Assembly (NCBI GenBank): GCA_040385605.1
Contig: JAZKHC010000026.1
Location: 5,680-69,679, forward strand
Origin: Pseudomonadota bacterium
GTDB lineage: Bacteria; Pseudomonadota; Gammaproteobacteria; Nevskiales; Nevskiaceae
Length of the DNA stretch: 64,000 nt
Direction of reading: 5' to 3'
The position numbers and the translations under genes are program-made. Numbering within the stretch: position 1 is the first letter of the stretch; each line of letters opens with the position of its first letter. Positions 3,192 through 59,420 of this stretch are shown one piece after another. Under the pieces are notes generated by a model. That model saw only the letters and a program-made list of their open reading frames with translations. It did no database searches and was not told the origin of the DNA.

Positions 3192-4352
3192 ATGAAAGCC
3201 GTCGTCTGCCAGAACACCCAGTTGCGCGTGGTCGAGCGCCCTGCATTGACGCCTGGCAAGGGCCAGGTGTTATTGAACGTGCTGCGCTGTGGCATCTGCG
3301 GCTCCGACCTGCACCTGCGCCACCACTGCGACCACATGGGCGCGCTGGTGAAGCGCGCGGGCTATCAGCACTTCCCCAATGCCAGCGACGAGGTGGTGTT
3401 CGGCCACGAGTTCTGTGGCGAGGTGGTGGACTACGGTCCCCGAACCTCCCGCAAGCTCAAGACCGGCAGCGTCGTATGTGCGATCCCGCTGATCCGAAAC
3501 GGCCGTGACATTGACCTGCTCGGCCTCTCCGCCCGCTCGGCCGGTGCCTATGCCGAACAGGTGCTGGTCGATGAGGCTTTGATGGTGCCGGTGCCCAATG
3601 GCCTGCCCGCCGACCAGGCCGCACTCACCGAGCCGATGGCCGTGGCGCTGCATGCGGTACGCCGCAGCGAGATTCGCAAGGGCGAGGTCGGCATCGTCAT
3701 CGGCTGCGGGCCGGTGGGGCTGGCGGTGATCGGCATGCTCAGGGCGCGGGGCGTGAAGGCCATCGTCGCCAGCGACTACTCGCCCGGCCGGCGCGAACTC
3801 GCGCGCCGCTGTGGTGCCGATGTGGTCATCAATCCCGCCGAGCATTCGCCCTACGCCAACGGCCGCAAGCACGGCTTCATCGAGAGCCTTGCCGATATGG
3901 TGGAGCTGGGTGTGAGCACGCGCGAAAAGCTCGGCAAGCTACCGCTGCCCTGGTGGCAGACCTGGCGCGTGGCCGAGCAGCTGGGCCTGCAACCCAAGCG
4001 CCCGGTGATCTTCGAGTGCGTCGGTGTGCCCGGCATCCTGCAATCCATCCTCGATGGCGCGCCGCTGCTCTCGCGCGTGGTCGTGGTGGGTGTGTGCATG
4101 CAGGCCGACACCATCGAGCCCTCACTCGCCATCAACAAGGAGATCGAGCTGCGCTTCGTGCTCGGCTACTCGCCACTGGAATACCGCGATGCCCTGCACC
4201 TGCTCGCCGAGGGCAAGGTGGATGCCAGCCCGCTGATCACCGGCACGGTCGGGCTTGAGGGCGTGGACGCAGCCTTCACCGCGCTCGGCGACCCCGAGCG
4301 GCACGCCAAGATTTTGATCGACCCCAGGCTGCGAGGCAAAAAAATCAGCTGA
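3192..4352 (+). CDS. Zinc-binding (MDR-family) alcohol dehydrogenase
   Basis: CGICGSDLH, GHEFCG, Rossmann GCGPVG, LTEPMAVALHAV. Confidence 0.9.
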   Translation: MKAVVCQNTQLRVVERPALTPGKGQVLLNVLRCGICGSDLHLRHHCDHMGALVKRAGYQHFPNASDEVVFGHEFCGEVVDYGPRTSRKLKTGSVVCAIPLIRNGRDIDLLGLSARSAGAYAEQVLVDEALMVPVPNGLPADQAALTEPMAVALHAVRRSEIRKGEVGIVIGCGPVGLAVIGMLRARGVKAIVASDYSPGRRELARRCGADVVINPAEHSPYANGRKHGFIESLADMVELGVSTREKLGKLPLPWWQTWRVAEQLGLQPKRPVIFECVGVPGILQSILDGAPLLSRVVVVGVCMQADTIEPSLAINKEIELRFVLGYSPLEYRDALHLLAEGKVDASPLITGTVGLEGVDAAFTALGDPERHAKILIDPRLRGKKIS

Positions 4353-5386: not shown

Positions 5387-6410
5387 CGAGTGCGGTGTGA
5401 GGGTGCAGCGCGACGCGCAGCACGTCCAGAACGCGGTCGATGTCCTCGCGGCAGACATCCAGATGCGTGACCAGACGGGTGCGCGGGCCGATGCTGGCGA
5501 GCACATCGTCGGCCTTGAGCGCTGCCGCCACCGCATCGACCTGCGACATCGGAATGTGGAAGAACACGATATTGGTCTGCACCGGCTCCACCACCAGGCC
5601 CAGCGTGCTGAGACCCTCGGCAAGGTGCCGGGCCAGCGCGTGATCGTCTGCGAGGCGGGCGACGTGATGCTCTAGCGCGTAGAGCCCGGCAGCGGCCAGC
5701 ACGCCGGCCTGGCGCATGCCGCCGCCGAGGGCCTTGCGCCAGCGCTGTGCCTGCGCGATGAAGGGCTTGCTGCCCATCAACAGGCTGCCTGCCGGTGCGC
5801 CCAGACCCTTGCTGAGGCAGAGCGAGACGGAGTCGAACCCCGCAACGATCTCGCGCTCGCTGCAGCCACGCGCAACCATGGCGTTGCAGACGCGCGCACC
5901 ATCGAGATGGGTCGCGAGGCCATGCAATTTGGCGAGCGTGGTGGCCTCTGCGACGTACTGTGCTTGCAGCACCTTGCCGCCGATGGTGTTCTCCAGCGCT
6001 AGCAGTCGGGTACGGACAAAGTGCACATCGTCGGGCTTGATCGCAGCGGCGATGTCGGCGAGTGAGAGCGTGCCGTCGGGCTGGTTGGTAATGGGCTGCG
6101 GCTGGATACTGCCGAGCACCGCTGCGCCGCCCTGCTCCCAGCGATAGGTGTGCGCCTCGGCCCCGACGATCATCTCGTCACCGCGCCCGCAGTGCGCCAT
6201 TAGTGCTGCGAGGTTGCTCTGGGTGCCGGTGGGGAAGAATAGTGCCGCTTCGAAACCGAAGCGTTCTGCAGCGACTGCCTGCAGGCGATTGACGGTGGGG
6301 TCGTCGCCATAGACGTCGTCGCCCAGCTCGGCCGCGTGCATGGCCGCGCGCATGGCGGCGGTGGGGCGGGTGACGGTGTCGCTGCGCAGGTCGATCAGCT
6401 GTTGGCTCAT
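5376..6410 (-). CDS. ltaE: Low-specificity L-threonine aldolase
   Basis: [35 protein letters not shown] (PLP lysine), GGGMRQAG. Confidence 0.93.
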
Positions 6411-28183: not shown

Positions 28184-28543
28184 ATGAATGTCGTCGATTC
28201 CTCCGGCTGGCTCGAATACTTTGCGGGCACGCCGCGCGCTGGCCTGTTCGCCAAGGCCATCGAGAACACCGAGCAGCTGGTGGTACCTGTCATCACCATC
28301 TACGAAGTGTTCAAAAAGGTGCTGCGGGAGCGTGGCGAGAATCTGGCCTTGCGAGCCGCCAGCCAGATGCAGCTGGGGCAGGTGGTCGAAATCGACGTGT
28401 CGCTGGCGCTGAGTGCGGGTCGCCACGACCTGCCACTGGCAGATAGCCTGATCTACGCCACCGCCCAGCTGCACAAGGCCACGCTGTGGACGCAGGATGC
28501 GCACTTCGAAGGCCTGCCTGGCGTGCGCTACCTCGGCAAGTAG
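28184..28543 (+). CDS. vapC: PIN-domain VapC toxin
   Basis: VVDSSGWLEY, IYEV, LADSLIYATA, LWTQDAHF. Confidence 0.9.
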   Translation: MNVVDSSGWLEYFAGTPRAGLFAKAIENTEQLVVPVITIYEVFKKVLRERGENLALRAASQMQLGQVVEIDVSLALSAGRHDLPLADSLIYATAQLHKATLWTQDAHFEGLPGVRYLGK

Positions 28544-47735: not shown

Positions 47736-47817
47736 GGCTGCATTTTAAGGGTTTGCCCCGTTGGCAGGCGTCCGCTACCGTGCCGCCCCACTCTTTTATT
47801 CAGCCCTGATCCCGTCA

Positions 47818-49752
47818 ATGGCTACCCAGCAGCAATACGACGTCAACGCCATCGAAGTGCTCGACGGCCTCGACCCGGTGCGCGTGCGCCCCGGCATGTA
47901 CACCGACACCACGCGCCCCAACCACCTGGCGCAGGAGGTCATCGACAACGCCGTGGATGAAGCGATGGCAGGCCATGCCCGGCACATCCGCACGGTGATT
48001 TTTGCCGATGGCAGCTGCGAAGTGTCAGATGACGGGCGCGGCATCCCCACCGATATCCATCCTGTGCACAAGATCAGCGGTGTCGAGCTGGTGCTGACCA
48101 AGCTGCATGCGGGCGGCAAGTTCAGCAACAAGAACTACCAGTTCTCCGGCGGCCTGCATGGCGTCGGCGTGAGCGTGGTCAATGCGCTCTCGACCCGGCT
48201 CGACGTGTTCGTGAAGCGCGGCGGTATCGAACACACCATGCACTTCGAGAGCGGCCACACGAAGTCATCCCTGCGCGAGATCGGAACAGCGGGCAAGAAG
48301 GAAACCGGCACCCGCGTGCGCTTCTGGCCCGATGCCAAGTATTTCGACTCGGCCAAATTTTCGCTGCCACGCCTCAAGCAAATCCTGCGGGCCAAGGCGG
48401 TGCTCTGCCCCGGCCTGAAGATGTCGCTCAAGGACGAGGCCAGCGGCGAAGTCACCGAGTGGCATTACGAAAACGGCCTGATGGATTACCTGCTCGATGC
48501 CGTCAAGGGCCACGAGCTGATCCCCGCCGAGCCTTTCACCGGCAAGTTCAAGGCCGACCGCGAAGAGGCGGAGTGGGCGCTGGCCTGGGTCAATGCCGAT
48601 GGCACGCCAGAGCTGTTGCAAGAGAGCTACGTCAATCTCATCCCCACCGCCCAGGGCGGCACGCACGTCAACGGGCTGCGCACCGGTTTGACCGAGGCGA
48701 TCCGCGAGTTCTGCGAGTTCCGTAACCTCTTGCCGCGCGGCTTGAAGCTGGCGCCGGAAGATGTCTGGCAGGGCCTCGCCTACGTCATCAGCATCAAGAT
48801 GCAGGACGCGCAGTTCGCCGGCCAGACCAAGGAGCGCCTGTCTTCACGCGAGACGGCGGCTTTCGTCAGCGGCGTGGTGCATGACAGCTTCGGCCTTTGG
48901 CTCAACCAGCACCCGGACGAGGGCGAAAAGGTCGCACAGCTGGTGATTGCGAATGCCTCGGCCCGCATGAAGGCCAGCAAGCAGGTCGTGCGCAAGAAGA
49001 TCACCACCGGCCCCGCACTGCCCGGCAAGCTCGCCGATTGCGTGCTCACCGATCTCAACCGCACCGAGCTGTTTCTGGTGGAAGGCGACTCCGCCGGCGG
49101 CAGCGCCAAACAAGCCCGCGACCGCGACACCCAGGCCATCATGCCCTTGCGCGGCAAGATTCTGAACACTTGGGAGGCGAGCGCGGGCGAGGCGAGCGCC
49201 AGCGAAGAAATCCACAACATCAGCGTCGCCATCGGGGTGGACCCCGGCAGCGCCGACATCAGCGGCCTGCGCTACGGCAAGGTCTGCGTGCTGGCCGATG
49301 CCGACAGCGACGGCCTGCACATCGCAACGCTTCTTTGCGCGCTGTTCCTCAAGCATTTCCGCCCGCTGGTCGCCGCCGGAAATATCTACATCGCCATGCC
49401 GCCGCTGTTCCGTATCGACGCCGGCAAGCAGGTGTTTTATGCCTTGGACGAAGCCGAAAAACAGGGCGTGCTTGATCGTCTGCAAGCCGAGGGCAACAAG
49501 AGCAAGGTCGGCGTCACCCGCTTCAAAGGCTTGGGCGAGATGAACCCGCTGCAATTGCGCGAGACCACCATGAGCGCGGATACCCGCCGCCTGGTGCAGC
49601 TCACGCTCGACGAGTTGCCGGAGGCCGAAGAAGGTGCGCCAGCCGTCAAGACCACCGATGGCCTCATGGACATGCTGCTCAACAAGAAGCGCGCGGGTGA
49701 TCGCAAGACCTGGCTTGAAACCAATGGCGACAAGGCCGAGATCGAGGTCTGA
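47818..49752 (+). CDS. parE: DNA topoisomerase IV subunit B
   Basis: RPGMYTDTTRPNHL, EVIDNAVDE, EGDSAGGSAKQAR, PLRGKILN, RFKGLGEMNP. Confidence 0.95.
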   Translation: MATQQQYDVNAIEVLDGLDPVRVRPGMYTDTTRPNHLAQEVIDNAVDEAMAGHARHIRTVIFADGSCEVSDDGRGIPTDIHPVHKISGVELVLTKLHAGGKFSNKNYQFSGGLHGVGVSVVNALSTRLDVFVKRGGIEHTMHFESGHTKSSLREIGTAGKKETGTRVRFWPDAKYFDSAKFSLPRLKQILRAKAVLCPGLKMSLKDEASGEVTEWHYENGLMDYLLDAVKGHELIPAEPFTGKFKADREEAEWALAWVNADGTPELLQESYVNLIPTAQGGTHVNGLRTGLTEAIREFCEFRNLLPRGLKLAPEDVWQGLAYVISIKMQDAQFAGQTKERLSSRETAAFVSGVVHDSFGLWLNQHPDEGEKVAQLVIANASARMKASKQVVRKKITTGPALPGKLADCVLTDLNRTELFLVEGDSAGGSAKQARDRDTQAIMPLRGKILNTWEASAGEASASEEIHNISVAIGVDPGSADISGLRYGKVCVLADADSDGLHIATLLCALFLKHFRPLVAAGNIYIAMPPLFRIDAGKQVFYALDEAEKQGVLDRLQAEGNKSKVGVTRFKGLGEMNPLQLRETTMSADTRRLVQLTLDELPEAEEGAPAVKTTDGLMDMLLNKKRAGDRKTWLETNGDKAEIEV

Positions 49753-49890
49753 CAAGGCGATAAGCCCGAGTCTCGAAAGCGGGCACCGCGTTAAAAGCAT
49801 GCCTTAAAAGTAAAGATCACTTTTAAAGCTAGTAATGGATTACTTAAAAAGATAGGCTTTACTTTGCAAGGTCCACGGGGGAGGCGGGAT

Positions 49891-51051
49891 ATGCAAGCCA
49901 GTGACTTCCACACGGCCCTCGCCGGGCGCGTTATCAGCACCCCGCAGGGCTATATGGCCTTCGTGCCTGCGCCCTTGCCGCCGAAAATCACCTACACCCC
50001 GGCACTGGCGCGAGCGATTTCCGATGCCGATGCGGCCCTGAGCGAGCTGTCCGGACTAGGCCATCGGCTGCCCAATCCCCATGTGCTGATCGCTCCCTAT
50101 GTCAGACGCGAAGCGGTGCTGTCGTCTCGTATCGAAGGCACGCAGGCCAGTATCAACGATGTGCTGGAAGACGAAGCGGGCCTGAGCCCGCAGACCGCAC
50201 CGGATGATGTGCGCGAGGTGCGCAACTACATCACCGCGCTCGATCACGGCATCGCAGCGATGGAAAAGCTGCCGCTTTCACTGCGGTTGGTGCGCGAGGT
50301 GCACGACAAACTCATGCAGGGCGTGCGCGGTAACACCGCCACACCCGGCGAATTTCGCCGCAGTCAGAACTGCATCGGCCCACCTGGCAGCACGCCGCTC
50401 ACCGCGCCCTACGTGCCACCGCCCGTGCACGAGATGCACACCGCACTCGGTGATTGGGAGAAGTTTCTGCACTGGCGAGGCGAGATGCCTGATCTTGTGC
50501 AGTGCGCGCTGATCCACGAGCACTTCGAGGCCATCCACCCCTTTCTCGACGGCAATGGCCGTGTTGGCCGCTTGCTCATCACCTTGTTCCTGCTCGATCG
50601 GGGGCGGCTGCATCAACCCTTGCTTTACCTCTCGGAGTTCATCGAGCGTCACCGCCGCGAGTATTACGAGGGCCTGCACCGAATCCGCACCGAGGGCGAT
50701 TGGCACGCCTGGCTCATGTATTTCATGGGTGGCGTGCGCTGGAGCGCCGCACGCGCCAGCCGCCACGCGCGGCAGTTGTTGGACTTGCGTGAAGAGCTGC
50801 GCCGCACGCTCGATGCCACCCCCAAGGCCCTGCCGTTGGTGGATGAGCTTTTCGTCAACCCCTACGTCAATCCGCCGCGCCTGCAAAAGCTGCTCGGTGT
50901 GAGCGACCCCACCGCGCGCGTGATGATCGTCAAGCTGGAGAAGCTCGGCGTGCTGCGCGAAGTCACTGGCCGTAGCTGGGGCAAGCTCTGGCTGGCCGAG
51001 GCCGTGATGAAAGCCATCGAAGACCCTGGCGAAGAGCCGCTAGAGGGCTAG
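49891..51051 (+). CDS. Fic-family adenylyltransferase with N-terminal inhibitory motif and C-terminal HTH
   Basis: HPFLDGNGRVGR core motif; SSRIEGT fits the (S/T)xxxE(G/N) inhibitory motif. Confidence 0.92.
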   Translation: MQASDFHTALAGRVISTPQGYMAFVPAPLPPKITYTPALARAISDADAALSELSGLGHRLPNPHVLIAPYVRREAVLSSRIEGTQASINDVLEDEAGLSPQTAPDDVREVRNYITALDHGIAAMEKLPLSLRLVREVHDKLMQGVRGNTATPGEFRRSQNCIGPPGSTPLTAPYVPPPVHEMHTALGDWEKFLHWRGEMPDLVQCALIHEHFEAIHPFLDGNGRVGRLLITLFLLDRGRLHQPLLYLSEFIERHRREYYEGLHRIRTEGDWHAWLMYFMGGVRWSAARASRHARQLLDLREELRRTLDATPKALPLVDELFVNPYVNPPRLQKLLGVSDPTARVMIVKLEKLGVLREVTGRSWGKLWLAEAVMKAIEDPGEEPLEG

Positions 51052-51056
51052 AAGCG

Positions 51057-54000
51057 ATGAGCACCCTCCTCGTCGCAGACTATCAACGCCGCATCGCCGA
51101 GCTGTTGCAATACGGCGGCAGCGCCAACGAAGACAGTATCCGCAAGGCTTTTGCGCGCCTGCTGGATGACGTGGCCCGCCCGCACGACCTGCGCCTGATC
51201 GAAGAGCTGGAAGTAGTGACCAGCAAGGGAACGAAGGTCTACCCAGACGGCACGCTCAAGGACGCCCTGCGCCTCACCCACGGCTATTGGGAGGCCAAGG
51301 ATGAGCACGATGATCTGGATGAAGAGATCGCCAAGAAGCGCGCCAAGGGCTACCCCAGCGACAACATTTTGTATGAGGACAGCCGCGAGGCGGTGCTGAT
51401 CCAGAACGGTCAGCAGGTGCAGCGCGTCAGCCTCGGCGGCGAGCCCAAACTGATCGCGGACCTGCTCAAGACCTTCGTCGAGTTCGAGCGTGCGGAGCTG
51501 GGCGATTTCCGCCGCGCCATCGAGCAGTTCAAGGTGGACATGCCCAAGGTGCTCGAAGCCCTGCGCGCCTTGATCGAAGCACAGCAGGCCGACAACAAGC
51601 CCTTCGCCAAGGCGCTCAAGACCTTCCTCAAGCTCTGCCAGAGCAGCATCAACGAGTCGGTGACGGCCGACGACGTGCGCGAGATGCTGATACAGCACGT
51701 CCTGACGGAGGACATCTTTCTGCGCGTGTTCGGCGACAGCCAGTTTCACCGCGAGAACAACATCGCCCGCGAGCTGACCAAGGTGGCCGAGACCTTCTTT
51801 ACCGGCGGCGTGAAGAAGAACACCTTGCGGGGATTGGAGAGCTACTACGGCGCGATCCGCGAGGCCGCGGCGGGCATTGCCGACCACCACGAAAAGCAGC
51901 AGTTCCTCAAGGCCATCTACGAAAACTTCTACAAGGTCTACAACCCCAAGCTGGCCGATCGCCTCGGCGTGGTCTACACGCCGGGCGAGCTGGTGCGCTT
52001 CATGCTCGATGGTGTCGATGCCCTGCTGCACCGGCACTTCGGCAAGACGCTTGCCAGCAAAAACGTCGAGATTCTCGACCCCGCCGTCGGCACCGGCACC
52101 TTCATCACCGACCTCATCGAGCACTTGAAGGCGCACCCGCAGGCGCTGAAGCACAAGTACAAGAACGAGATTCACTGCAACGAGGTGGCGATCCTTCCGT
52201 ATTACATCGCCAACCTCAACATCGAGTTCACCTACGCCCAGCTCACCAAGAGCTACGAGGAGTTTCCGCACATCTGCTTTGTGGACACGCTCGACAACCT
52301 CGCCTTCGAGCAGACCCACACCGGCCAGCAGCTGGGCCTGCTCGGCAGCATGAGCAGCGAGAACACCGACCGCATCGCGAAGCAGAACAAGAAGAAGATC
52401 AGCGTCGTCATCGGCAACCCGCCCTACAACGCCAATCAGACCAACGAGAACGACAACAACAAGAATCGGCTCTACGAGGGCATCGACGAGCGCATCAAGA
52501 AAACCTGGATTGCGGCCAGCAAAGCGCAGAAGACCAAGATGTACGACATGTATGCGCGCTTCTTCCGCTGGGCGGCCGACCGCGTCAACAGCGACGGCAT
52601 CATTGCCTTCGTCACCAACCGCAGCTTCATCGACAGCCGCACCTTCGATGGCTTCCGGCTCGAAATGGCGAAGGAGTTCGACGAGGCCTGGGTGGTCGAT
52701 TTGGGGGGAGATGTGCGCGCCAACCCCAAGCTCAGCGGCACCACCCACAACGTCTTCGGTATTCAGACCGGGGTCGCCATCAGCTTCTGGGTCAAGCGCC
52801 ATCGAGCCTCCCTCCCCCAGCGGGGGAGGGCCGGGGTGGGGGCCTCTCAGGGTCTTGCACCCTTGGCTGGCCGCGCTCCCCCCTCTGTCCCTCCGGGACA
52901 TCTCCCCCCGCTGGGGGGAGAAGACAAGGCGCGCATCTTTTATGTGCGTCGGCCAGAGCTGGAAACCGCCGCTGACAAGCTCGGCTGGCTCTCGTCCACG
53001 GGCTTCAACGAGGTGGCCTTCGAGCCGGTCACACCCGATGCCAAGGGCAACTGGATCAATCAGGCCGACAACGATTTCGACACGCTGCTGCCGCTAGCAA
53101 GCAAGGAGACCAAGCAGACGGATTCGCCTGCGAAGGAGCGGGCGCTGTTCAAGCTCTATTCGCTGGGGGTTTCGACCAATCGTGACGAGTGGGTGTACGA
53201 CGACAGCGCCGAGGCGCTGGCGAGCAAGATGCAGTGGTTTGTGAGCCGCTACAGGCAGCAAAAAAAGAGCCGCGACTTTGACGGTGCGATCAAATGGTCA
53301 GAAGCACTCAAGATGCGATTCGAGCAAGGTCGTGAGGAGGCGTTTGACTCAGTGCGCGTCCGCAGCAGCCTATATCGTCCTTTCGCGCGGCGTTGGTATT
53401 ACGACTCATCACTTTTCATTGATCGAGTCGGTTCCAAAGAGGAAATATTTCCGTCTCGTGGTCTGGCGCAAAATAACCATGCTTTGATGATCTGCGCCCA
53501 CCCACAGCTGCCTTTCACTGTCCATTCGGTAAACGCTCTGCCAGATGCGGGCTATTCCTCTCGCGCAACTCTGATGTTCCCTCGCTACGTCTACGGCGCA
53601 GAAGGCAACCGCCAAGACAACCTCACCGACTGGGGCGTCAAGCAATTCGAGAAGCACTACGGCAACTCCCTCCCCCAGCGGGGGAGGGCTGGGGAGGGGG
53701 TGCTGTTCGCACCGCCGCCAGTCGATCCAGTCACCCTGGCGCGTGCCCGAGCCCTGCGCGGCAACCTGACCGAGGCCGAGAACAAGCTCTGGCAGGTGCT
53801 GCGCGCTGCGCAGCTCGGGGCCAAGTTCCGTCGGCAGCATCCGCTCAAGCCTTTCATCCTGGACTTCTATTGCCTGGAACACCGGCTCGCCATCGAGCTC
53901 GATGGCGGCCAGCACAACGATGACGCGGTGGCCGAACTCGATGCAGCGCGCACGGCATGGCTTGAGGCACAGGGCATCCGGGTGCTGCGGTTCTGGAACG

Positions 54001-54746
54001 ACGAGGTGCTGCGCAATGTCGAGGGGGTGGCGCAGCGGGTTGTCGAGGTCATCGCGGAGCTGGTGGCGGCTCCCCCACCCCGGCCCTCCCCCGCTGGGGG
54101 AGGGAGCACGGCGCGGTTCGTTGCTGGGGGAGGGGGCACAGCGGAGCGGCTGATTACGCGCGAGCGCATCTTTGCCTACGTCTACGCCGTACTGCACCAC
54201 CCGGCCTATCGCGCCAAGTACGCGCTCAACCTCAAACGCGAGCTGCCGCGCATCCCGCTCTACGGCGAGGCGGCCGACTTCAAAAAATGGGCAGCGTGGG
54301 GCGAGCAACTGCTGACGCTGCACACCGGCTTCGAGCAGGCTGCACCGTTTGCGCTGATGCGCAGTGAGGCACCCTCTCCCCCAGCCCCTCTCCCGCAGGC
54401 GGGCGAGGGGAGCCAAAGCGCGCCCAAGTGCAAGCTCAAGGCCGACAAGGCCGCAGGCTGCATCGAAGTCGATGCCGCCACCACGCTCAGCGGCATCCCC
54501 GCCACCGCATGGGATTACAAGCTCGGCAACCGCAGCGCGCTGGAGTGGGTACTGGATCAATACAAGGAAGGCACGCCCCGCGACCCGACCATCGCCGCGC
54601 ACTTCAACACCTACCGCTTCGCCGACTACAAGGAGCACGTCATCGATCTCTTGCAGCGGGTGACGACGGTGAGTGTGGAGACGATGCGCATCGTTGGGCA
54701 GATGCCCTCGGCCGACGCGACGGAAACTCTCGCCGCCGCCCGATGA
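51057..54746 (+). CDS. Single-chain restriction-modification enzyme (PD-ExK nuclease + N6-adenine MTase + Type ISP-like C-terminal specificity domain) with in-frame repeat and DUF559 insertions
   Basis: YPDGTL...WEAK, YTPGELV, ILDPAVGTGTF, IGNPPYN, GVSTNRDEWVY, YVYAVLHHPAYRAKYALNLKRELPRIP, LGNRSALEWVLDQY. Confidence 0.88.
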   Translation: MSTLLVADYQRRIAELLQYGGSANEDSIRKAFARLLDDVARPHDLRLIEELEVVTSKGTKVYPDGTLKDALRLTHGYWEAKDEHDDLDEEIAKKRAKGYPSDNILYEDSREAVLIQNGQQVQRVSLGGEPKLIADLLKTFVEFERAELGDFRRAIEQFKVDMPKVLEALRALIEAQQADNKPFAKALKTFLKLCQSSINESVTADDVREMLIQHVLTEDIFLRVFGDSQFHRENNIARELTKVAETFFTGGVKKNTLRGLESYYGAIREAAAGIADHHEKQQFLKAIYENFYKVYNPKLADRLGVVYTPGELVRFMLDGVDALLHRHFGKTLASKNVEILDPAVGTGTFITDLIEHLKAHPQALKHKYKNEIHCNEVAILPYYIANLNIEFTYAQLTKSYEEFPHICFVDTLDNLAFEQTHTGQQLGLLGSMSSENTDRIAKQNKKKISVVIGNPPYNANQTNENDNNKNRLYEGIDERIKKTWIAASKAQKTKMYDMYARFFRWAADRVNSDGIIAFVTNRSFIDSRTFDGFRLEMAKEFDEAWVVDLGGDVRANPKLSGTTHNVFGIQTGVAISFWVKRHRASLPQRGRAGVGASQGLAPLAGRAPPSVPPGHLPPLGGEDKARIFYVRRPELETAADKLGWLSSTGFNEVAFEPVTPDAKGNWINQADNDFDTLLPLASKETKQTDSPAKERALFKLYSLGVSTNRDEWVYDDSAEALASKMQWFVSRYRQQKKSRDFDGAIKWSEALKMRFEQGREEAFDSVRVRSSLYRPFARRWYYDSSLFIDRVGSKEEIFPSRGLAQNNHALMICAHPQLPFTVHSVNALPDAGYSSRATLMFPRYVYGAEGNRQDNLTDWGVKQFEKHYGNSLPQRGRAGEGVLFAPPPVDPVTLARARALRGNLTEAENKLWQVLRAAQLGAKFRRQHPLKPFILDFYCLEHRLAIELDGGQHNDDAVAELDAARTAWLEAQGIRVLRFWNDEVLRNVEGVAQRVVEVIAELVAAPPPRPSPAGGGSTARFVAGGGGTAERLITRERIFAYVYAVLHHPAYRAKYALNLKRELPRIPLYGEAADFKKWAAWGEQLLTLHTGFEQAAPFALMRSEAPSPPAPLPQAGEGSQSAPKCKLKADKAAGCIEVDAATTLSGIPATAWDYKLGNRSALEWVLDQYKEGTPRDPTIAAHFNTYRFADYKEHVIDLLQRVTTVSVETMRIVGQMPSADATETLAAAR
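52808..52923. repeat. Non-autonomous palindromic repeat doublet inserted in frame in the RM gene
   Basis: Left arm CTCCCTCCCCCAGCGGGGGAGGGCCGGGGTGGGGG; right end TCTCCCCCC-GCT-GGGGGGAGA hairpin. Confidence 0.8.
53666..54106 (+). mobile_element. Putative 441-bp element: DUF559/Vsr-like nuclease domain between 35-bp inverted repeats, in frame in the RM gene
   Basis: Inverted arms 53666-53700 and 54072-54106 match 33/35; enclosed ARALRGNLTEAENKLWQ...FRRQHP...LDFYC...IELDGGQH...VLRFWNDEV. Confidence 0.78.
54372..54412. repeat. Related solo palindromic repeat, in frame in the RM gene
   Basis: CCCTCTCCCCCAGCCCCTCTCCCGCAGGCGGGCGAGGGGAG, same architecture as the 54072-54106 arm; encodes PSPPAPLPQAGEG. 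Confidence 0.72.
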
Positions 54747-54777
54747 TCTGAAGCAGCCCCACCAAGCCACCCACGCC

Positions 54778-56409
54778 ATGCACCACACCCCGCTCATCGC
54801 CACCCTCGTCGCTGGCCTCGTGCTGGCGTTCGTGTCCGGGGCGCTGGCGCATCGGCTCAAGGTGTCGCCGCTGATCGGGTATCTCTTGGCGGGTGTGATG
54901 GTGGGGCCGTTCACGCCGGGCTTCGTGGCCGATCAGGCGCTCGCCAACGAGCTGGCCGAGATCGGCGTGATTCTGCTGATGTTCGGCGTCGGCCTGCATT
55001 TTTCGATGAAGGATTTGCTCTCGGTGAAGGCCATCGCCGTGCCGGGCGCGGTGGTGCAGATTGCGGTGGCCACGCTGATGGGTATGGGCCTCGCGCACTG
55101 GCTCGGTTGGTCGCTGATGGCCGGGTTCGTGTTCGGCCTTGCCCTCTCGGTCGCCAGCACCGTGGTGCTGCTGCGGGCGCTGCAAGAGCGGCGTTTGGTC
55201 GATACGCAGCGCGGCCGCATCGCAGTGGGCTGGCTGATTGTCGAAGACCTGATGATGGTGCTGGCACTGGTGCTGATCCCTGCCATTGCTTCGGTCGATG
55301 ATGCCGGCGCACATGCGCGGGACGGCACGCTCGGCATCGTCGCCATCGCGGTCGGCAAGGCGGCTGCCTTCGTGGTGTTCATGCTGCTGGTCGGGCGGCG
55401 AGTCATCCCCAAGCTGCTGCACTGGGTGGCGCAGACCGGCTCGCGGGAATTGTTCAGCCTCTCGGTGCTGGCGATTGCACTCGGCGTGGCCTTTGGCGCG
55501 GCGATGCTGTTCGGGGTGTCGTTCGCACTCGGTGCCTTCTTCGCCGGCATGATTCTCAACGAGTCGCCGCTCTCGGCCCGCGCGGCGGAAGAATCGCTGC
55601 CGATGCGCGATGCCTTTGCGGTGTTGTTCTTCGTCTCGGTGGGCATGCTGTTCAACCCCGCGATCATCGTCGACGCACCAGTGGCGCTCGCCGCGACGCT
55701 CGCCATCATCCTGTTCGGCAAATCGCTGGCGGCGTATGTGATCGTGCGCGCCTTCGGCCACCCCAACCAGACCGCGCTCACCATCTCGGCGAGCCTCGCG
55801 CAGATTGGCGAGTTCTCCTTCATCCTCGTCGGCCTCGGTGTGTCATTGCAGTTGCTGCCGCAGCAGGGGCAAGACCTGGTGCTGGCCGGGGCGATCTTCT
55901 CGATTCTGCTCAACCCGCTGCTGTTCAAGCTATTCGTGCGCAACCAGCCGGAGAAGCTCGCCGAACCCGTTGCCGACCTCAAGCCCACGACGCTGCACGG
56001 CCACACGATTCTGGTCGGCTACGGCCGCGTCGGCAGCCTGATTGGCGCGGGCTTGAAGCGCGCAGGCGAGCCTTTCGTGGTGATTGAAGACCGCAAGATT
56101 CCCGCCGCCGCTGCCTTGGCCGATGGTGCTGAAATCCTCAGCGGCAACGCCGCCGACCCCAAGGTGCTGAAGGCTGCCAATCTCGCCGGTGCGCGCCGCC
56201 TGTTCGTCGCCATCCCGCAGGTCTTCGAGGCAGGCCAGGTGGTGAGCCAGGCCGTGCTTGCCAACCCTGATCTGAAGATTCTGGCGCGCGCCCACTCCGA
56301 TGCCGAAGTGACACACCTGCAAGCTCAAGGTGCCACCGCCACCATCATGGGCGAGGCTGAAATCGCACGCGGCATGCTGGATGCCGCCTTCGAGCGTCGC
56401 CATACCTAA
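54778..56409 (+). CDS. ybaL: CPA2-family cation:proton antiporter with TrkA-N/RCK domain (YbaL/RosB-like)
   Basis: LAEIGVILLMFGVGLHFS, ALSVASTVV, LIVEDL, LAQIGEFSFIL, VGYGRVG. Confidence 0.9.
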   Translation: MHHTPLIATLVAGLVLAFVSGALAHRLKVSPLIGYLLAGVMVGPFTPGFVADQALANELAEIGVILLMFGVGLHFSMKDLLSVKAIAVPGAVVQIAVATLMGMGLAHWLGWSLMAGFVFGLALSVASTVVLLRALQERRLVDTQRGRIAVGWLIVEDLMMVLALVLIPAIASVDDAGAHARDGTLGIVAIAVGKAAAFVVFMLLVGRRVIPKLLHWVAQTGSRELFSLSVLAIALGVAFGAAMLFGVSFALGAFFAGMILNESPLSARAAEESLPMRDAFAVLFFVSVGMLFNPAIIVDAPVALAATLAIILFGKSLAAYVIVRAFGHPNQTALTISASLAQIGEFSFILVGLGVSLQLLPQQGQDLVLAGAIFSILLNPLLFKLFVRNQPEKLAEPVADLKPTTLHGHTILVGYGRVGSLIGAGLKRAGEPFVVIEDRKIPAAAALADGAEILSGNAADPKVLKAANLAGARRLFVAIPQVFEAGQVVSQAVLANPDLKILARAHSDAEVTHLQAQGATATIMGEAEIARGMLDAAFERRHT

Positions 56410-56475: not shown

Positions 56476-56745
56476 ATGCGTAGCACAGCCACCTTCGAGC
56501 CGGATGTGTCTAGCCGCTTTCAGCGGTTGTTGACCCAACGTAAGCAAACTCGCAAAACCCTGTTGAACGAGGTCATGCGTCGTGGCCTTGATGCGGTGGA
56601 AACCGCAGAGGTCGAGCTCAAGCCTTTCGTGCTGGTGCCTTTTGAGAGCGGGCCGATTCTCGACACCCGTCCGCCCAGCGTTATCAACGCCGAACTGGAG
56701 CTGGAAGAAATGATGGAAAGCCTGCGGCGCTCGTCTGCCGCATGA
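56476..56745 (+). CDS. Ribbon-helix-helix antitoxin (VapB-like)
   Basis: MRSTATFEPDV...LLNEVMRRGL; ATGA overlap with the PIN gene. Confidence 0.75.
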   Translation: MRSTATFEPDVSSRFQRLLTQRKQTRKTLLNEVMRRGLDAVETAEVELKPFVLVPFESGPILDTRPPSVINAELELEEMMESLRRSSAA

Positions 56746-57194
56746 GCATCAGCCAGCTGACCGACATCAACCTGCTGATCTATGCGCACTTCCCCAGCTA
56801 CCCCGAACACGAGGCTGCCAAGGCTTGGCTACAAGGCCAGTTGAGTGCTGAGGGACTGGCGATGCCTTGGGCTGTGGCTCTGGGATTCGTCAGGGTTTGC
56901 ACCCAGCAGAAGACGCCGTCCGTCGTGCAAACGCTGGGTGCAGCCTGGCAACGGCTGGACGCGATGCTCGACACGCGCAAGGTCTGGCTGCTTGAACCCG
57001 GTGCGCGGCATCGGCAGATCCTGAGCATGCTGATCCCGCTGGCTGGCCGGGATCAGACTGACGTGAGTGGCGACATCACCGATCTGCACCTCGTTGCACT
57101 GGCGATCGAACATCAATTGACCTTGTGCGCCCGCGATCGCGGCTATGCCCGCTTTGCATCCGTCGGCCTCCGCTGGCAAAACCCCCTCATCTAG
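56742..57194 (+). CDS. vapC: PIN-domain VapC toxin
   Basis: TDINLLIYA, HEAAKAWL, GFVRVCT, ITDLHLVALAIEH, CARDRGYARF. Confidence 0.88.
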   Translation: MSISQLTDINLLIYAHFPSYPEHEAAKAWLQGQLSAEGLAMPWAVALGFVRVCTQQKTPSVVQTLGAAWQRLDAMLDTRKVWLLEPGARHRQILSMLIPLAGRDQTDVSGDITDLHLVALAIEHQLTLCARDRGYARFASVGLRWQNPLI

Positions 57195-57197
57195 AAC

Positions 57198-59420
57198 ATG
57201 CAAATCATCGACCCCGAAAAAATCCCGCTGCGCGTCTTCGCCGAAAAGGCCTATCTCGACTACTCGATGTACGTCGTGCTCGACCGCGCGCTGCCGCATG
57301 TCGAAGACGGCCTCAAGCCCGTGCAACGCCGCATCATCTACGCCATGAGCGAGCTGGGTTTGCAGAGCACCGCCAAGCACAAGAAGAGCGCGCGCACCGT
57401 CGGTGACGTGCTCGGCAAATACCATCCGCACGGTGACTCGGCTTGCTATGAAGCCATGGTGACGATGGCGCAGCCCTTCAACTACCGCACGCCGCTGGTG
57501 GACGGGCAGGGCAACTGGGGCTCGGCGGACGATCCCAAATCCTTCGCCGCCATGCGCTACACCGAGTCGCGGCTCACGCCGTATGCGCAGGCCTTGCTCG
57601 CGGAGTTGGAGCAAGGCACGGTGCAGTGGGCACCTAATTTCGACGGCACGCTGGAAGAGCCCAAGCTTTTGCCCGCTCGCCTGCCGAACATCCTCGTCAA
57701 CGGCACCACGGGCATCGCGGTGGGCATGGCGACGGACATTCCGCCGCACAACATCGGCGAGCTGGTGAAGGCTTGCATCCATCTGCTCAAGCACCCGAAC
57801 GCCTCCATCGACAAACTCATGGAGTTCGTGCCGGGGCCAGATTTCCCCACCGGTTGCGAGATCATCAGCGAGAGCGCGGAGCTGTTGAAGCTCTACCAGA
57901 CCGGCAACGGCGTGGTGCGCACCCGGGCGCGCTGGGAGCGCGAGGACGACGGCAATATCGTCATCACGCATCTGCCACACCAGGTCAGCGGCAACAAGAT
58001 TCAGGAGCAGATCGCCGAGCAGATGCGGGCGAAGAAGTTGCCTCTCGTGGAGGACTTGAGAGACGAGTCCGATCACGAAAACCCCTGTCGTCTCGTCATC
58101 ATCCCGCGCAGCAACCGTGTCGATGCCGAGCAGCTGATGGCGCATCTCTTCGCCACCACCGACCTCGAAAAATCGGTGCGCGTGAACCTGAACATGATCG
58201 GGCTGGATGGTCGCCCGCGCGTGAAGAACCTGCGCGAGATCCTCAGCGAATGGCTGGAGTTCCGCTTCGCCACGGTGACGCGTCGGCTCAATCACCGCCT
58301 GCAGAAGGTGAATGATCGTCTGCACTTGTTGGAAGGCTTGCTGATTGCCTTCCTCAACCTCGACGAGGTGATCCGCATCATCCGTTTCGAGGACGAGCCG
58401 CGCGCGACGCTGATGCGCACGCTTGCCTTGAGCGAGATTCAGACCGACTACATCCTGGATACCCGCCTGCGGCAGTTGCAGCGGCTGGAAGAGATGCGCA
58501 TCAAGGGCGAGCAGGACGAACTGGCAGCCGAGAAGGCCAAGCTCGAAGAGCTGCTGGGTTCGGACGATGCACTGCGCAAGCTCATCAGCGACGAGCTGCG
58601 CGAAGACGGCAAGAAATATGGCGATGTGCGCCGCAGCCCAATAGTTGCTAGGGCTCCTGCCGTCGCCATGAGCGCAGAAGAAATCCTGCCCGCCGAGTCG
58701 ATCACGGTGGTGCTGAGCAAGGCCGGATGGATCAGGGCCGGCAAGGGTCACGAGCTGGACCCGGCCACGCTCAACTACAAGTCCGGCGACGAGTACTTTG
58801 CGCACACGCTGGGCAAGACCAATCAGCTGTTGATCCTGCTCGACGACAAGGGCCGCGCCTACACGCTCAGCCCGCGCGACCTGCCGAGTGCGCGAAGCCA
58901 GGGTGAGCCGGTGACGACCAAGATCGACATTCAGGACGGCGGCAAGATCGTCGCCATGCTGATGGGCGCTGCGGATGAAAAGCTGCTGCTGGCGGGCAGT
59001 GACGGCTATGGCTTCATCACCAAGCTGGGCGATATGGAAGGCCGCAACAAGGCCGGCAAGGCGGTGCTGAATCTCGAAGGCACGCCCTTGTTACCGATGC
59101 GCGTGCTCGATGCCGTCACCGAGCGCATTGCCATCGCCACTGCCGAGGGTCGCCTGCTGGTGTTCCCGGCGGCCGAGCTGCCGGAGCTGGTGAAGGGCAA
59201 GGGCAACAAGCTGGTGACGCTGAAAGGTGAGGACAAGATTCTCGCGCTTACCGTGCTGCCGCCAGGCCGCGCGCTGGAACTGGTCTGCGGCAAGCGCAGC
59301 CTCACCCTCAAGCTCACCGACATCGCCGCCTACACCGCCAGCCGTGGCAGCCGGGGCGGGGCGCTGCCTCGCGGGTTCCAGCGGGTGGACAGCATGAATG
59401 CGGAGCCTGCCAAAGCCTGA
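57198..59420 (+). CDS. parC: DNA topoisomerase IV subunit A
   Basis: [38 protein letters not shown]-terminal pinwheel repeats. Confidence 0.95.

Follow-up and report, generated by a model that had tools for sequence, protein, structure and literature searches.

What is a palindromic repeat doing inside the translated sequence of a restriction-modification enzyme, and how did it come to lie there? The question is raised by a 64-kb stretch of contig JAZKHC010000026.1 from a member of the Nevskiaceae (Gammaproteobacteria; assembly GCA_040385605.1), hereafter the window, in which three repeat insertions lie in frame within the gene of a DrdV-like Type IIL restriction-modification enzyme. One of them is a doublet of inverted arms without an open reading frame (ORF), and another consists of the same arms bracketing a nuclease domain of the DUF559 family. 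Selfish DNA read in frame within proteins is known from textbooks as a curiosity of Rickettsia; the same phenomenon is now found in free-living bacteria of high GC content, both in housekeeping genes (purL, gshB, hrpA, lpdA, uvrA-like) and in defence genes. From the comparison of sequences, we lean slightly towards the explanation that DUF559 acts on the arms and that break repair copies cassettes or doublets.

The host gene and the doublet with its parts are given below, where LR stands for the order left arm, spacer, right arm, and RL for the opposite order.

51057..54746, + strand: DrdV-like Type IIL restriction-modification enzyme (1229 aa) with three in-frame repeat insertions
52806..52922, + strand: ORF-less LR doublet of ~115 nt, in frame, residues 584-622
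52808..52842, + strand: left arm, hairpin CCCTCCCCC-AGC-GGGGGAGGG (52810-52830) followed by CCGGGGTGGGGG
52843..52876, + strand: spacer, found in this copy alone, with a small internal stem AGGGT..ACCCT
52877..52921, + strand: right arm variant made up of the C-tract CTCCCCCCTC, an extra hairpin and a terminal hairpin
52886..52900, + strand: extra right-arm hairpin TGTCCC-TCC-GGGACA
52901..52921, + strand: terminal right-arm hairpin TCTCCCCCC-GCT-GGGGGGAGA

The left arm at 52808-52842, CTCCCTCCCCCAGCGGGGGAGGGCCGGGGTGGGGG, is the reverse complement of the right arm of the DUF559 unit further downstream (54072-54106) at 35 of 35 positions, exactly as the preliminary description of this locus had stated, and a direct copy of the left arm of that unit (53666-53700) at 33 of 35. 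Each 35-nt arm combines a 9-bp C/G hairpin, closed by an AGC or GCT loop, with a G5 or C5 tract, the arm G-tract being GGGGGAGGGCYGGGGTGGGGG. The 24-nt arm core CTCCCTCCCCCAGCGGGGGAGGGC occurs three times in the window, as against none expected from 100 shuffles, and TCTCCCCCCGCTGGGGGGAGA (52901-52921) has a single occurrence with none expected. Perfect GC-rich pyrimidine/purine hairpins numbered four in a scan of the 64 kb, and all four lie within the restriction-modification gene. The minimum-energy folds of both DNA and RNA contain the left-arm hairpin and the two hairpins of the partner arm (52886-52900 and 52901-52921) that the preliminary description had picked out, while the folding z-score of the whole doublet is modest at about -2. 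A known RNA family, intron or riboswitch was rejected, as Rfam returned no match at E<=1 over 52600-54600.

The doublet is stop-free in five of its six frames and is read as part of the host protein, ...ISFWVKRHR-ASLPQRGRAGVGASQGLAPLAGRAPPSVPPGHLPPLGGE-DKARIFY, with the insert beginning at residue 584 and its Pro/Gly-rich peptide including ASLPQRGRAGVGASQ.... An AlphaFold2 model of residues 270-880 places 587-615 in a coil of low confidence (predicted local distance difference test, pLDDT, <50) between strands 573-580 and 626-631. Translation and model agree with the earlier placement of the insert between ISFWVK and ARIFY at the end of the methyltransferase domain, and the structure prediction is in line with the disordered surface loop that had been expected there. 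As modelled, the doublet-encoded peptide is the enlarged turn of the last beta-hairpin of the methyltransferase domain.

That this segment is an insertion, as had also been proposed, is confirmed by alleles and homologues with a short linker in its place. In a panel of 120 host homologues (P-numbers), a linker of 10-18 residues occupies the doublet site in the closest ones, P0002 (90% identical), P0003 and P0004, and in many others. The metagenomic alleles in runs X2-X4, three metagenomes other than the source metagenome (run X1; 95% of words), have a short linker as well. Two other loci (L-numbers stand for loci outside the window), L001 (88% nucleotide identity, same context) and L002, hold alleles without the doublet, against which the net gain is 93 nt or 31 aa, not the ~38 aa suggested in the preliminary description; some 7-10 residues of the ancestral linker DPKSKVPKPAA were replaced or overwritten at this site. 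In both alleles, a further 477 nt are missing at the DUF559 site and 36 nt at a third one. The net insertion lengths at all three sites are divisible by three, the reading frame is kept across them, and the host ORF is intact. The doublet, with a net length divisible by three and five of six frames stop-free, is therefore simply translated, adding ~31 residues.

The empty-site joints fall at 52797>52940 with 49 nt between for the doublet (run X4), at 53665>54155/6 with GCGGGCGGGCTG(C) between for the DUF559 unit (runs X2 and X3), and at breakpoints 54356-54364 > 54419-54420, with 55-62 nt skipped, for the third site (runs X2-X4); the empty-site sequence contains ...CACTATGGCAAGCGGGCGGGCTGCACG.... 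A pairing by MAFFT of the host GCGGGCGGGCTG with the arm GCGGGGGAGGGCTG was discarded as an alignment artefact, the host 13-mer more likely surviving as GCGGAGCGGCTGA to the right of the DUF559 unit. The insertions that follow the doublet in the same gene are listed here.

53666..54139, + strand: DUF559 unit, read in frame as a whole, 740 bp downstream of the doublet
53666..53700, + strand: left arm of the DUF559 unit
~53712..54068, + strand: DUF559 Vsr-fold nuclease domain (Pfam DUF559 4e-35; PDB 3HRL 1e-24)
54072..54106, + strand: right arm of the DUF559 unit
54123..54136, + strand: extra half-arm GCTGGGGGA, of which L126 also has one
54371..54412, + strand: third in-frame insertion, net +36 nt, peptide PSPPAPLPQAGEGSQS, of a different hairpin-repeat family

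From arm to arm, the DUF559 unit spans 441 nt (53666-54106), the length given in the preliminary description, and its own two arms are identical at 33 of 35 positions. In the AlphaFold2 prediction, the DUF559 domain is well folded (pLDDT ~90), and the arm-encoded residues 872-885 and 1008-1029 appear as linkers of low confidence. The window has three arms plus one variant, all in one gene.

The GTDB species-representative genomes were searched with the exact 22-mer hairpin core. At least 120 loci from at least eight phyla were found, with 145 exact copies among the matches listed, and the repeats are the sole sequence that these 120 loci share with the window. Carriers include Chloroflexota (with dozens of copies in single metagenome-assembled genomes, MAGs), Desulfobacterota, Alpha- and Gammaproteobacteria, the Burkholderiales genera Sphaerotilus, Variovorax, Polaromonas, Ottowia, Rhodoferax, Methylibium and Pelomicrobium, and further Planctomycetia, Pedosphaera, Longimicrobium and one Oscillospiraceae MAG. 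The arms occur solo, as inverted doublets, in arrays and around DUF559 genes. When pairs of adjacent arms were counted at a spacing of <=80 nt, 16 were LR, 14 RL and 5 direct, that is, 30 inverted against 5 direct. The window doublet aligns with the 16 LR doublets of other genomes through the common left arm and, on the right, the C-tract and GCT-loop hairpin; the spacers of these doublets are unrelated in sequence and unequal in length. The right arm in the window is the 6-C variant also present in L023, L039 and L049, with an extra 13-nt hairpin. In-frame copies elsewhere are found in an AMP-binding ligase, a UvrA-like protein, LpdA, HrpA, PurL, GshB and a HEPN-DUF499 ATPase, those in purL, gshB, hrpA, lpdA and the uvrA-like gene being doublets, and in-gene copies use all reading frames and both orientations. 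In Chloroflexota, unlike in the Burkholderiales doublets, the 22-mer sits inside longer composite repeats and direct arrays spaced ~117 to 465 nt (L035 3991-4249, L051 3375-3710, L059 3814-4219, L074 3713-4936 and many CAKZKA01 loci).

All three DUF559 genes in the 120 listed loci lie within 100 nt of arms, in the layout L-DUF559-R. Arm-flanked DUF559 is read in frame in DUF1156-type DNA methylases of a Desulfobacteraceae MAG (L022, 4700-5400), a Rhodospirillaceae MAG (L109, 5550-6250) and Pelomicrobium sp. G1 (L117, 4900-5650), with an identical insertion position in all three, after TPRQLVALTTFSDLV.... The methylases of L022 and L117 have several additional solo arms in other loops. The P0013 gene (L126) shows the L-DUF559-R layout too, with the hairpins outermost. 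The best database matches of the window DUF559 are free-standing DUF559 proteins of 54-66% identity, and at least 38 of 115 free-standing DUF559 ORFs run into arm-derived peptides such as PPPRPSPAGGG. The uniform orientation of DUF559 between L and R was dropped as evidence, because an element with inverted ends has no defined orientation.

Among the 120 host homologues, 13 carry DUF559 at exactly the site occupied in the window (site 2), and the nearest relatives of the window protein lack it; host identity and DUF559 identity correlate with r=0.56, with some discordant pairs. At the doublet site (site 1), arms are found repeatedly and DUF559 never, while every insertion longer than ~150 aa at site 2 contains DUF559. 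Site 2 without DUF559 holds a solo arm in P0047 and a doublet of another repeat family in P0086. In P0013, site 1 is occupied by a solo same-family arm that is read in another frame, and in P0117 by a same-family pair in RL order; these are independent events. All three sites accumulate hairpin-repeat peptides of several families across the panel (PSPAGRGxG, HLLPQGEKG, RPEPVEG...SSARTG, AGIQ...SRLRGNDG).

The arms are under constraint. Both arms of L126, which lies on a contig of 42.5% GC, are identical to the window arms (64% GC) at 33 of 35 positions, while in the same comparison DUF559 is 59% identical with 44% GC and the host coding DNA 44-64% identical. In the stem of 13 right arms, four of nine pairs changed on both sides (C-G to T-A) and none on one side only. 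Pairing held in 99% of the stem cells, a value reached by 0 of 500 shuffles and compared with 65-81% in slid controls, with the caveat that the arms were collected by a pyrimidine...purine pattern, which favours pairing at inner positions. The stem is kept via compensatory changes. An arm conserved nearly base for base across phyla and a 20-point GC difference regularly brackets a nuclease of unknown function.

How could such copies have spread? If DUF559 acts on the arms, a selfish element system would be at work, with the arms as its cis-acting sites and the DUF559 nuclease as its enzyme. That nuclease would cut or nick DNA either at an arm or between arms. Both the nuclease cassette and ORF-less doublets would then spread by repair that uses the arms as homology and copies from a filled copy, and copies would survive only where the protein tolerates an extra loop, which would explain the repeat build-up at the same three loops of the enzyme family. 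The arms are free of stops in almost every frame and code for Pro/Gly linkers, so that cassette and doublets could reside in frame unspliced. In favour of this explanation speak the arms around DUF559, their constraint, the inverted doublets and in-frame copies of other genomes, and the patchy presence of DUF559 at one site of the host family; the DUF559/Vsr clade, moreover, includes a proven homing endonuclease, I-Bth0305I (PMC3424549). Several results weigh against this explanation. Only 3 of the 145 listed arm copies adjoin DUF559. Beyond the 35-nt arms, the doublet and the DUF559 unit share a weak 31-nt resemblance at the right end and nothing more, so the earlier derivation of the doublet from the 441-bp unit is not supported, although the common arms and their inverted arrangement are. 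The literature searched on DUF559 reports no nuclease or mobility activity for the arm-flanked form, nor does it link DUF559 to flanking repeats, and the designation of doublet and unit as a non-autonomous and an autonomous partner is only putative, DUF559 being a Vsr-fold nuclease that is not known to transpose or home. Comparison with the empty alleles of L001, L002 and X2-X4, which are 75-88% identical and against which the old linker is part-replaced in the window, gave neither a target-site duplication nor a defined footprint. Neither the exact spacer 26-mer nor the pattern L-N(375-405)-R had an exact match in JGI metagenome contigs. All contigs of X1 that match an arm at >=85% come from the restriction-modification gene, contigs showing presence better than absence. 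Finally, survival in permissive loops, that is, selection alone, is sufficient to explain recurrent hits at the same loops, and targeting is not separable from it.

The direction from unit to doublet could equally be reversed, with the doublet as the target and DUF559 as the invader, and this is the main alternative. Spelled out, doublets would be independent repeats like the repetitive extragenic palindromes (REPs), or natural homing sites; DUF559 would invade the spacer, and 52806-52922 would be an un-invaded site. This would account for DUF559 units being always LR with the hairpins outermost, for doublets and solo arms far outnumbering DUF559 units among the listed copies, for spacers that are unrelated between doublets, unlike deletion products of one cassette, and for the solo arm or other-family doublet where site 2 lacks DUF559. 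It requires a separate mechanism for doublet spread, however, and arms recur at site 1 without DUF559 ever entering, whereas large site-2 insertions always contain it, and we regard it as rather unlikely. A purely local origin, in which ectopic gene conversion or repair carried the left arm to site 1 from the DUF559 unit at a distance of 1.2 kb and left a one-off scar, would fit a left arm that matches the right arm of the unit better than the two arms of the unit match each other, the confinement of all four window hairpins to one gene, and a source sample in which other copies were not found. Set against these, the right arm of the doublet belongs to another variant, the 6-C one, and has an extra hairpin not found in the unit arms, the doublet architecture recurs in unrelated genes of other genomes, and same-family arms entered the same loop in P0013 and P0117 in another frame or order, which makes a local origin improbable.

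Alternatively, an unrelated enzyme might mobilise the arms in trans, for example a Y1 transposase akin to the REP-associated tyrosine transposases (RAYTs) or another recombinase, with DUF559 as a passenger that was captured or uses the arms as linkers or terminators. REP systems and their inverted doublets (REPINs) operate in this manner, most of the listed arm copies have no DUF559 nearby, and the Chloroflexota 22-mer lies within larger composite repeats and arrays. Yet no Y1 or other transposase was detected among the 38 window ORFs scanned, the GTAG head by which REPs are usually recognised is missing from the arms, and the gene between inverted arms, which is the place of RAYT in REP systems, was DUF559 in every case seen; we therefore hold mobilisation in trans to be hardly likely. 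Selection of the Pro/Gly loop as an adaptive linker that changes enzyme behaviour, for instance oligomerisation or specificity, could draw on the intact ORF with three frame-keeping insertions and on the position of the loop soon after the segment aligned with F562/K567 of DrdV. In the frame used here, however, the repeat DNA simply yields this peptide; copies elsewhere use all three frames and both orientations, and the closest relatives manage without the loop, leaving this explanation with very little probability.

Returning to DUF559 acting on the arms, a wider proposal can be attached to it: the 35-nt arms would be the cis sites of undescribed DUF559-driven selfish elements that live in frame in essential and defence genes without splicing, with the doublet as their non-autonomous form or empty target. 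We offer this only tentatively, as plausible and short of probable. If DUF559 does act on the arms, one of the commonest unexplained families of small bacterial nucleases would gain a role, and the splicing-free occupation of coding DNA would, if true, be a third route to a host-harmless homing-type element beside introns and inteins. In protein databases, the arms create spurious low-complexity "linkers" and false domain fusions, which bears on annotation and structure prediction.

The arms have not formed a proliferating population in the source organism, as they are confined to one gene in X1. The expectation of further doublets was borne out in other genomes (at least 16) and failed for the source sample, where none was detected in the window or X1 outside this gene; in sister samples and X2, arms are found in other contexts as well. 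The same confinement, taken with an empty allele that is 88% identical and has the same chromosomal surroundings, suggests arrival by allele replacement or conversion; probably all three insertions replaced an empty allele or were converted into one, instead of proliferating across the genome. The 22-mer had no match in the viral contigs of IMG/VR, so a phage vector gets no support.

Which known class of element does the doublet resemble? Its closest analogues are the Rickettsia palindromic elements (RPEs) and the REPIN/RAYT systems, and it belongs to neither. RPEs are AT-rich, and we know of no nuclease gene associated with them. As far as their description allows comparison, RPEs share with the doublet the form of a palindromic repeat placed in frame in unrelated protein genes, adding peptide at fold-compatible sites with the host ORF kept, and the doublet is indeed an in-frame, ORF-preserving insertion at a structurally permissive site. 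In contrast to RPEs, the arms described here consist almost wholly of G+C, are spread over at least eight phyla, also stand alone or in arrays, and bracket DUF559; given this composition, homology to the ten RPE families is unlikely. RPEs measure ~150 bp and were reported in Rickettsia alone (Ogata et al. 2000, per review PMC10969869).

REP palindromes reportedly occur singly, as inverted doublets and in clusters, with the enzyme gene of REPIN/RAYT systems lying between inverted repeats. Inverted doublets with a short spacer, a single enzyme gene flanked by inverted repeats and a stem kept by compensatory changes are found here as well. However, the flanked gene encodes the Vsr-fold PD-(D/E)xK nuclease DUF559 and not a Y1/HUH transposase, the copies are intragenic and in frame, and the arm, far from being restricted to one species, is conserved across phyla. 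In the source (window and X1), the repeat is not multi-copy, while other genomes hold dozens; the doublet lies within the ORF 51057-54746 and not in extragenic DNA; and no Y1_Tnp match was obtained among the 38 window ORFs. The REPIN label in the preliminary description was accordingly abandoned, there being no RAYT-type gene in the window.

Its alternative label, that of a miniature inverted-repeat transposable element (MITE; PMC10969869), fits in part. The doublet is small, lacks a transposase ORF and ends in terminal inverted repeats matching those around a protein-coding unit, the same arms flanking DUF559 in the window, L022, L109, L117 and L126. A target-site duplication was not seen, the interior is unconserved, and the partner encodes no known transposase, its transposase or homing role being putative. 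Like homing endonucleases and inteins, including I-Bth0305I (PMC3424549), the DUF559 unit is a Vsr/DUF559-clade nuclease with patchy presence at one precise position of a conserved host gene, a distribution that the doublet does not share. Unlike them, the cassette is translated within the host protein, where the arms serve as linkers, and there are ORF-less doublets; Pfam found no Hint or intein domain in the host.

The host protein consists of an N-terminal PD-(D/E)xK nuclease, a helical coupler, an N6-adenine methyltransferase (NPPY) and a target-recognition domain, and Pfam recognised ISP_coupler, N6_Mtase, Eco57I and a Type_ISP_C that DUF559 cuts into two parts. The invariant D64..E79-x-K81 and NPPY motifs are present, in keeping with a single-chain, MmeI-type Type IIL enzyme. 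The homologue P0003, 81% identical to the window protein, aligns over its full length with DrdV (PDB 7LO5/7LVV, E=0). In DrdV, the methyltransferase spans 295-635 and the recognition domain 636-1029, and F562/K567 contact the flipped adenine or fill its vacated space (bioRxiv 10.1101/2021.01.06.425610). The doublet site corresponds to the DrdV loop at ~575-590. The two enzymes share the same domain order; DrdV differs in having a 17-residue loop as against 48 residues in the window protein, and a recognition domain without DUF559.

Further observations concern the repeats themselves. The free-standing DUF559 gene P0136 in L124, upstream of recB/recD/recC-like genes, is bracketed by direct repeats (3275-3380 and 3815-3960), each composed of an R arm, a 37-nt leader with ribosome-binding site and ATG, and an L arm, giving R-leader-L-DUF559-R-leader-L overall. 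This layout hints at a tandem or circle-junction form, and RL pairs may be solo junctions. The C-tract beside the right arm is tandemly duplicated about fourfold in L109 (~6040-6150), threefold in L117 (reverse strand) and twofold in L022, and extra half-arms lie 16-30 nt past the right arm in the window (54107-54139 region) and in L126; such duplications and half-arms may mark repeated nicking and repair, or slippage.

Many contigs of X1, X3 and X4 match 54372-54410 alone and then diverge, so the repeat at the third site is multi-copy in those communities. L001 (P0002) has an in-frame repeat-like insert of its own, ...AKAGIQAVG...DLDSRLRGNDEG..., in another recognition-domain loop (A1 columns ~898-935), and its motif AGIQ...SRLRGNDG also stands at site 2 in P0022 and P0113. 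The Logan contigs of X1 end exactly at the arms (window 52837/52843 and 54077/54101); 35-nt arms fragment short-read assemblies even at three copies. One 61-nt contig of X1 differs at six positions across the left arm and spacer (window 52814-52872), at a depth of 3.6 compared with 13.9 for the main allele, and comes either from a second locus or from a second strain whose copy of the doublet has diverged.

No RNA-seq run holding the locus was found. The restriction-modification gene and a Fic gene (49864-51051) form a two-gene insert between parE (47761-49752) and parC (57198-59420), an order repeated in L001 as parE-Fic-RM-parC (RM, restriction-modification), and L002 has the Fic-RM pair in another neighbourhood. 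Ahead of parC, the window contains a Kef-type antiporter ORF (54673-56409), a 111-aa ORF and a PIN-domain gene (56742-57194). The latter is one of two separate VapC-like PIN-domain genes in the window, the other lying at 28184-28543, and each probably belongs to a toxin-antitoxin pair.

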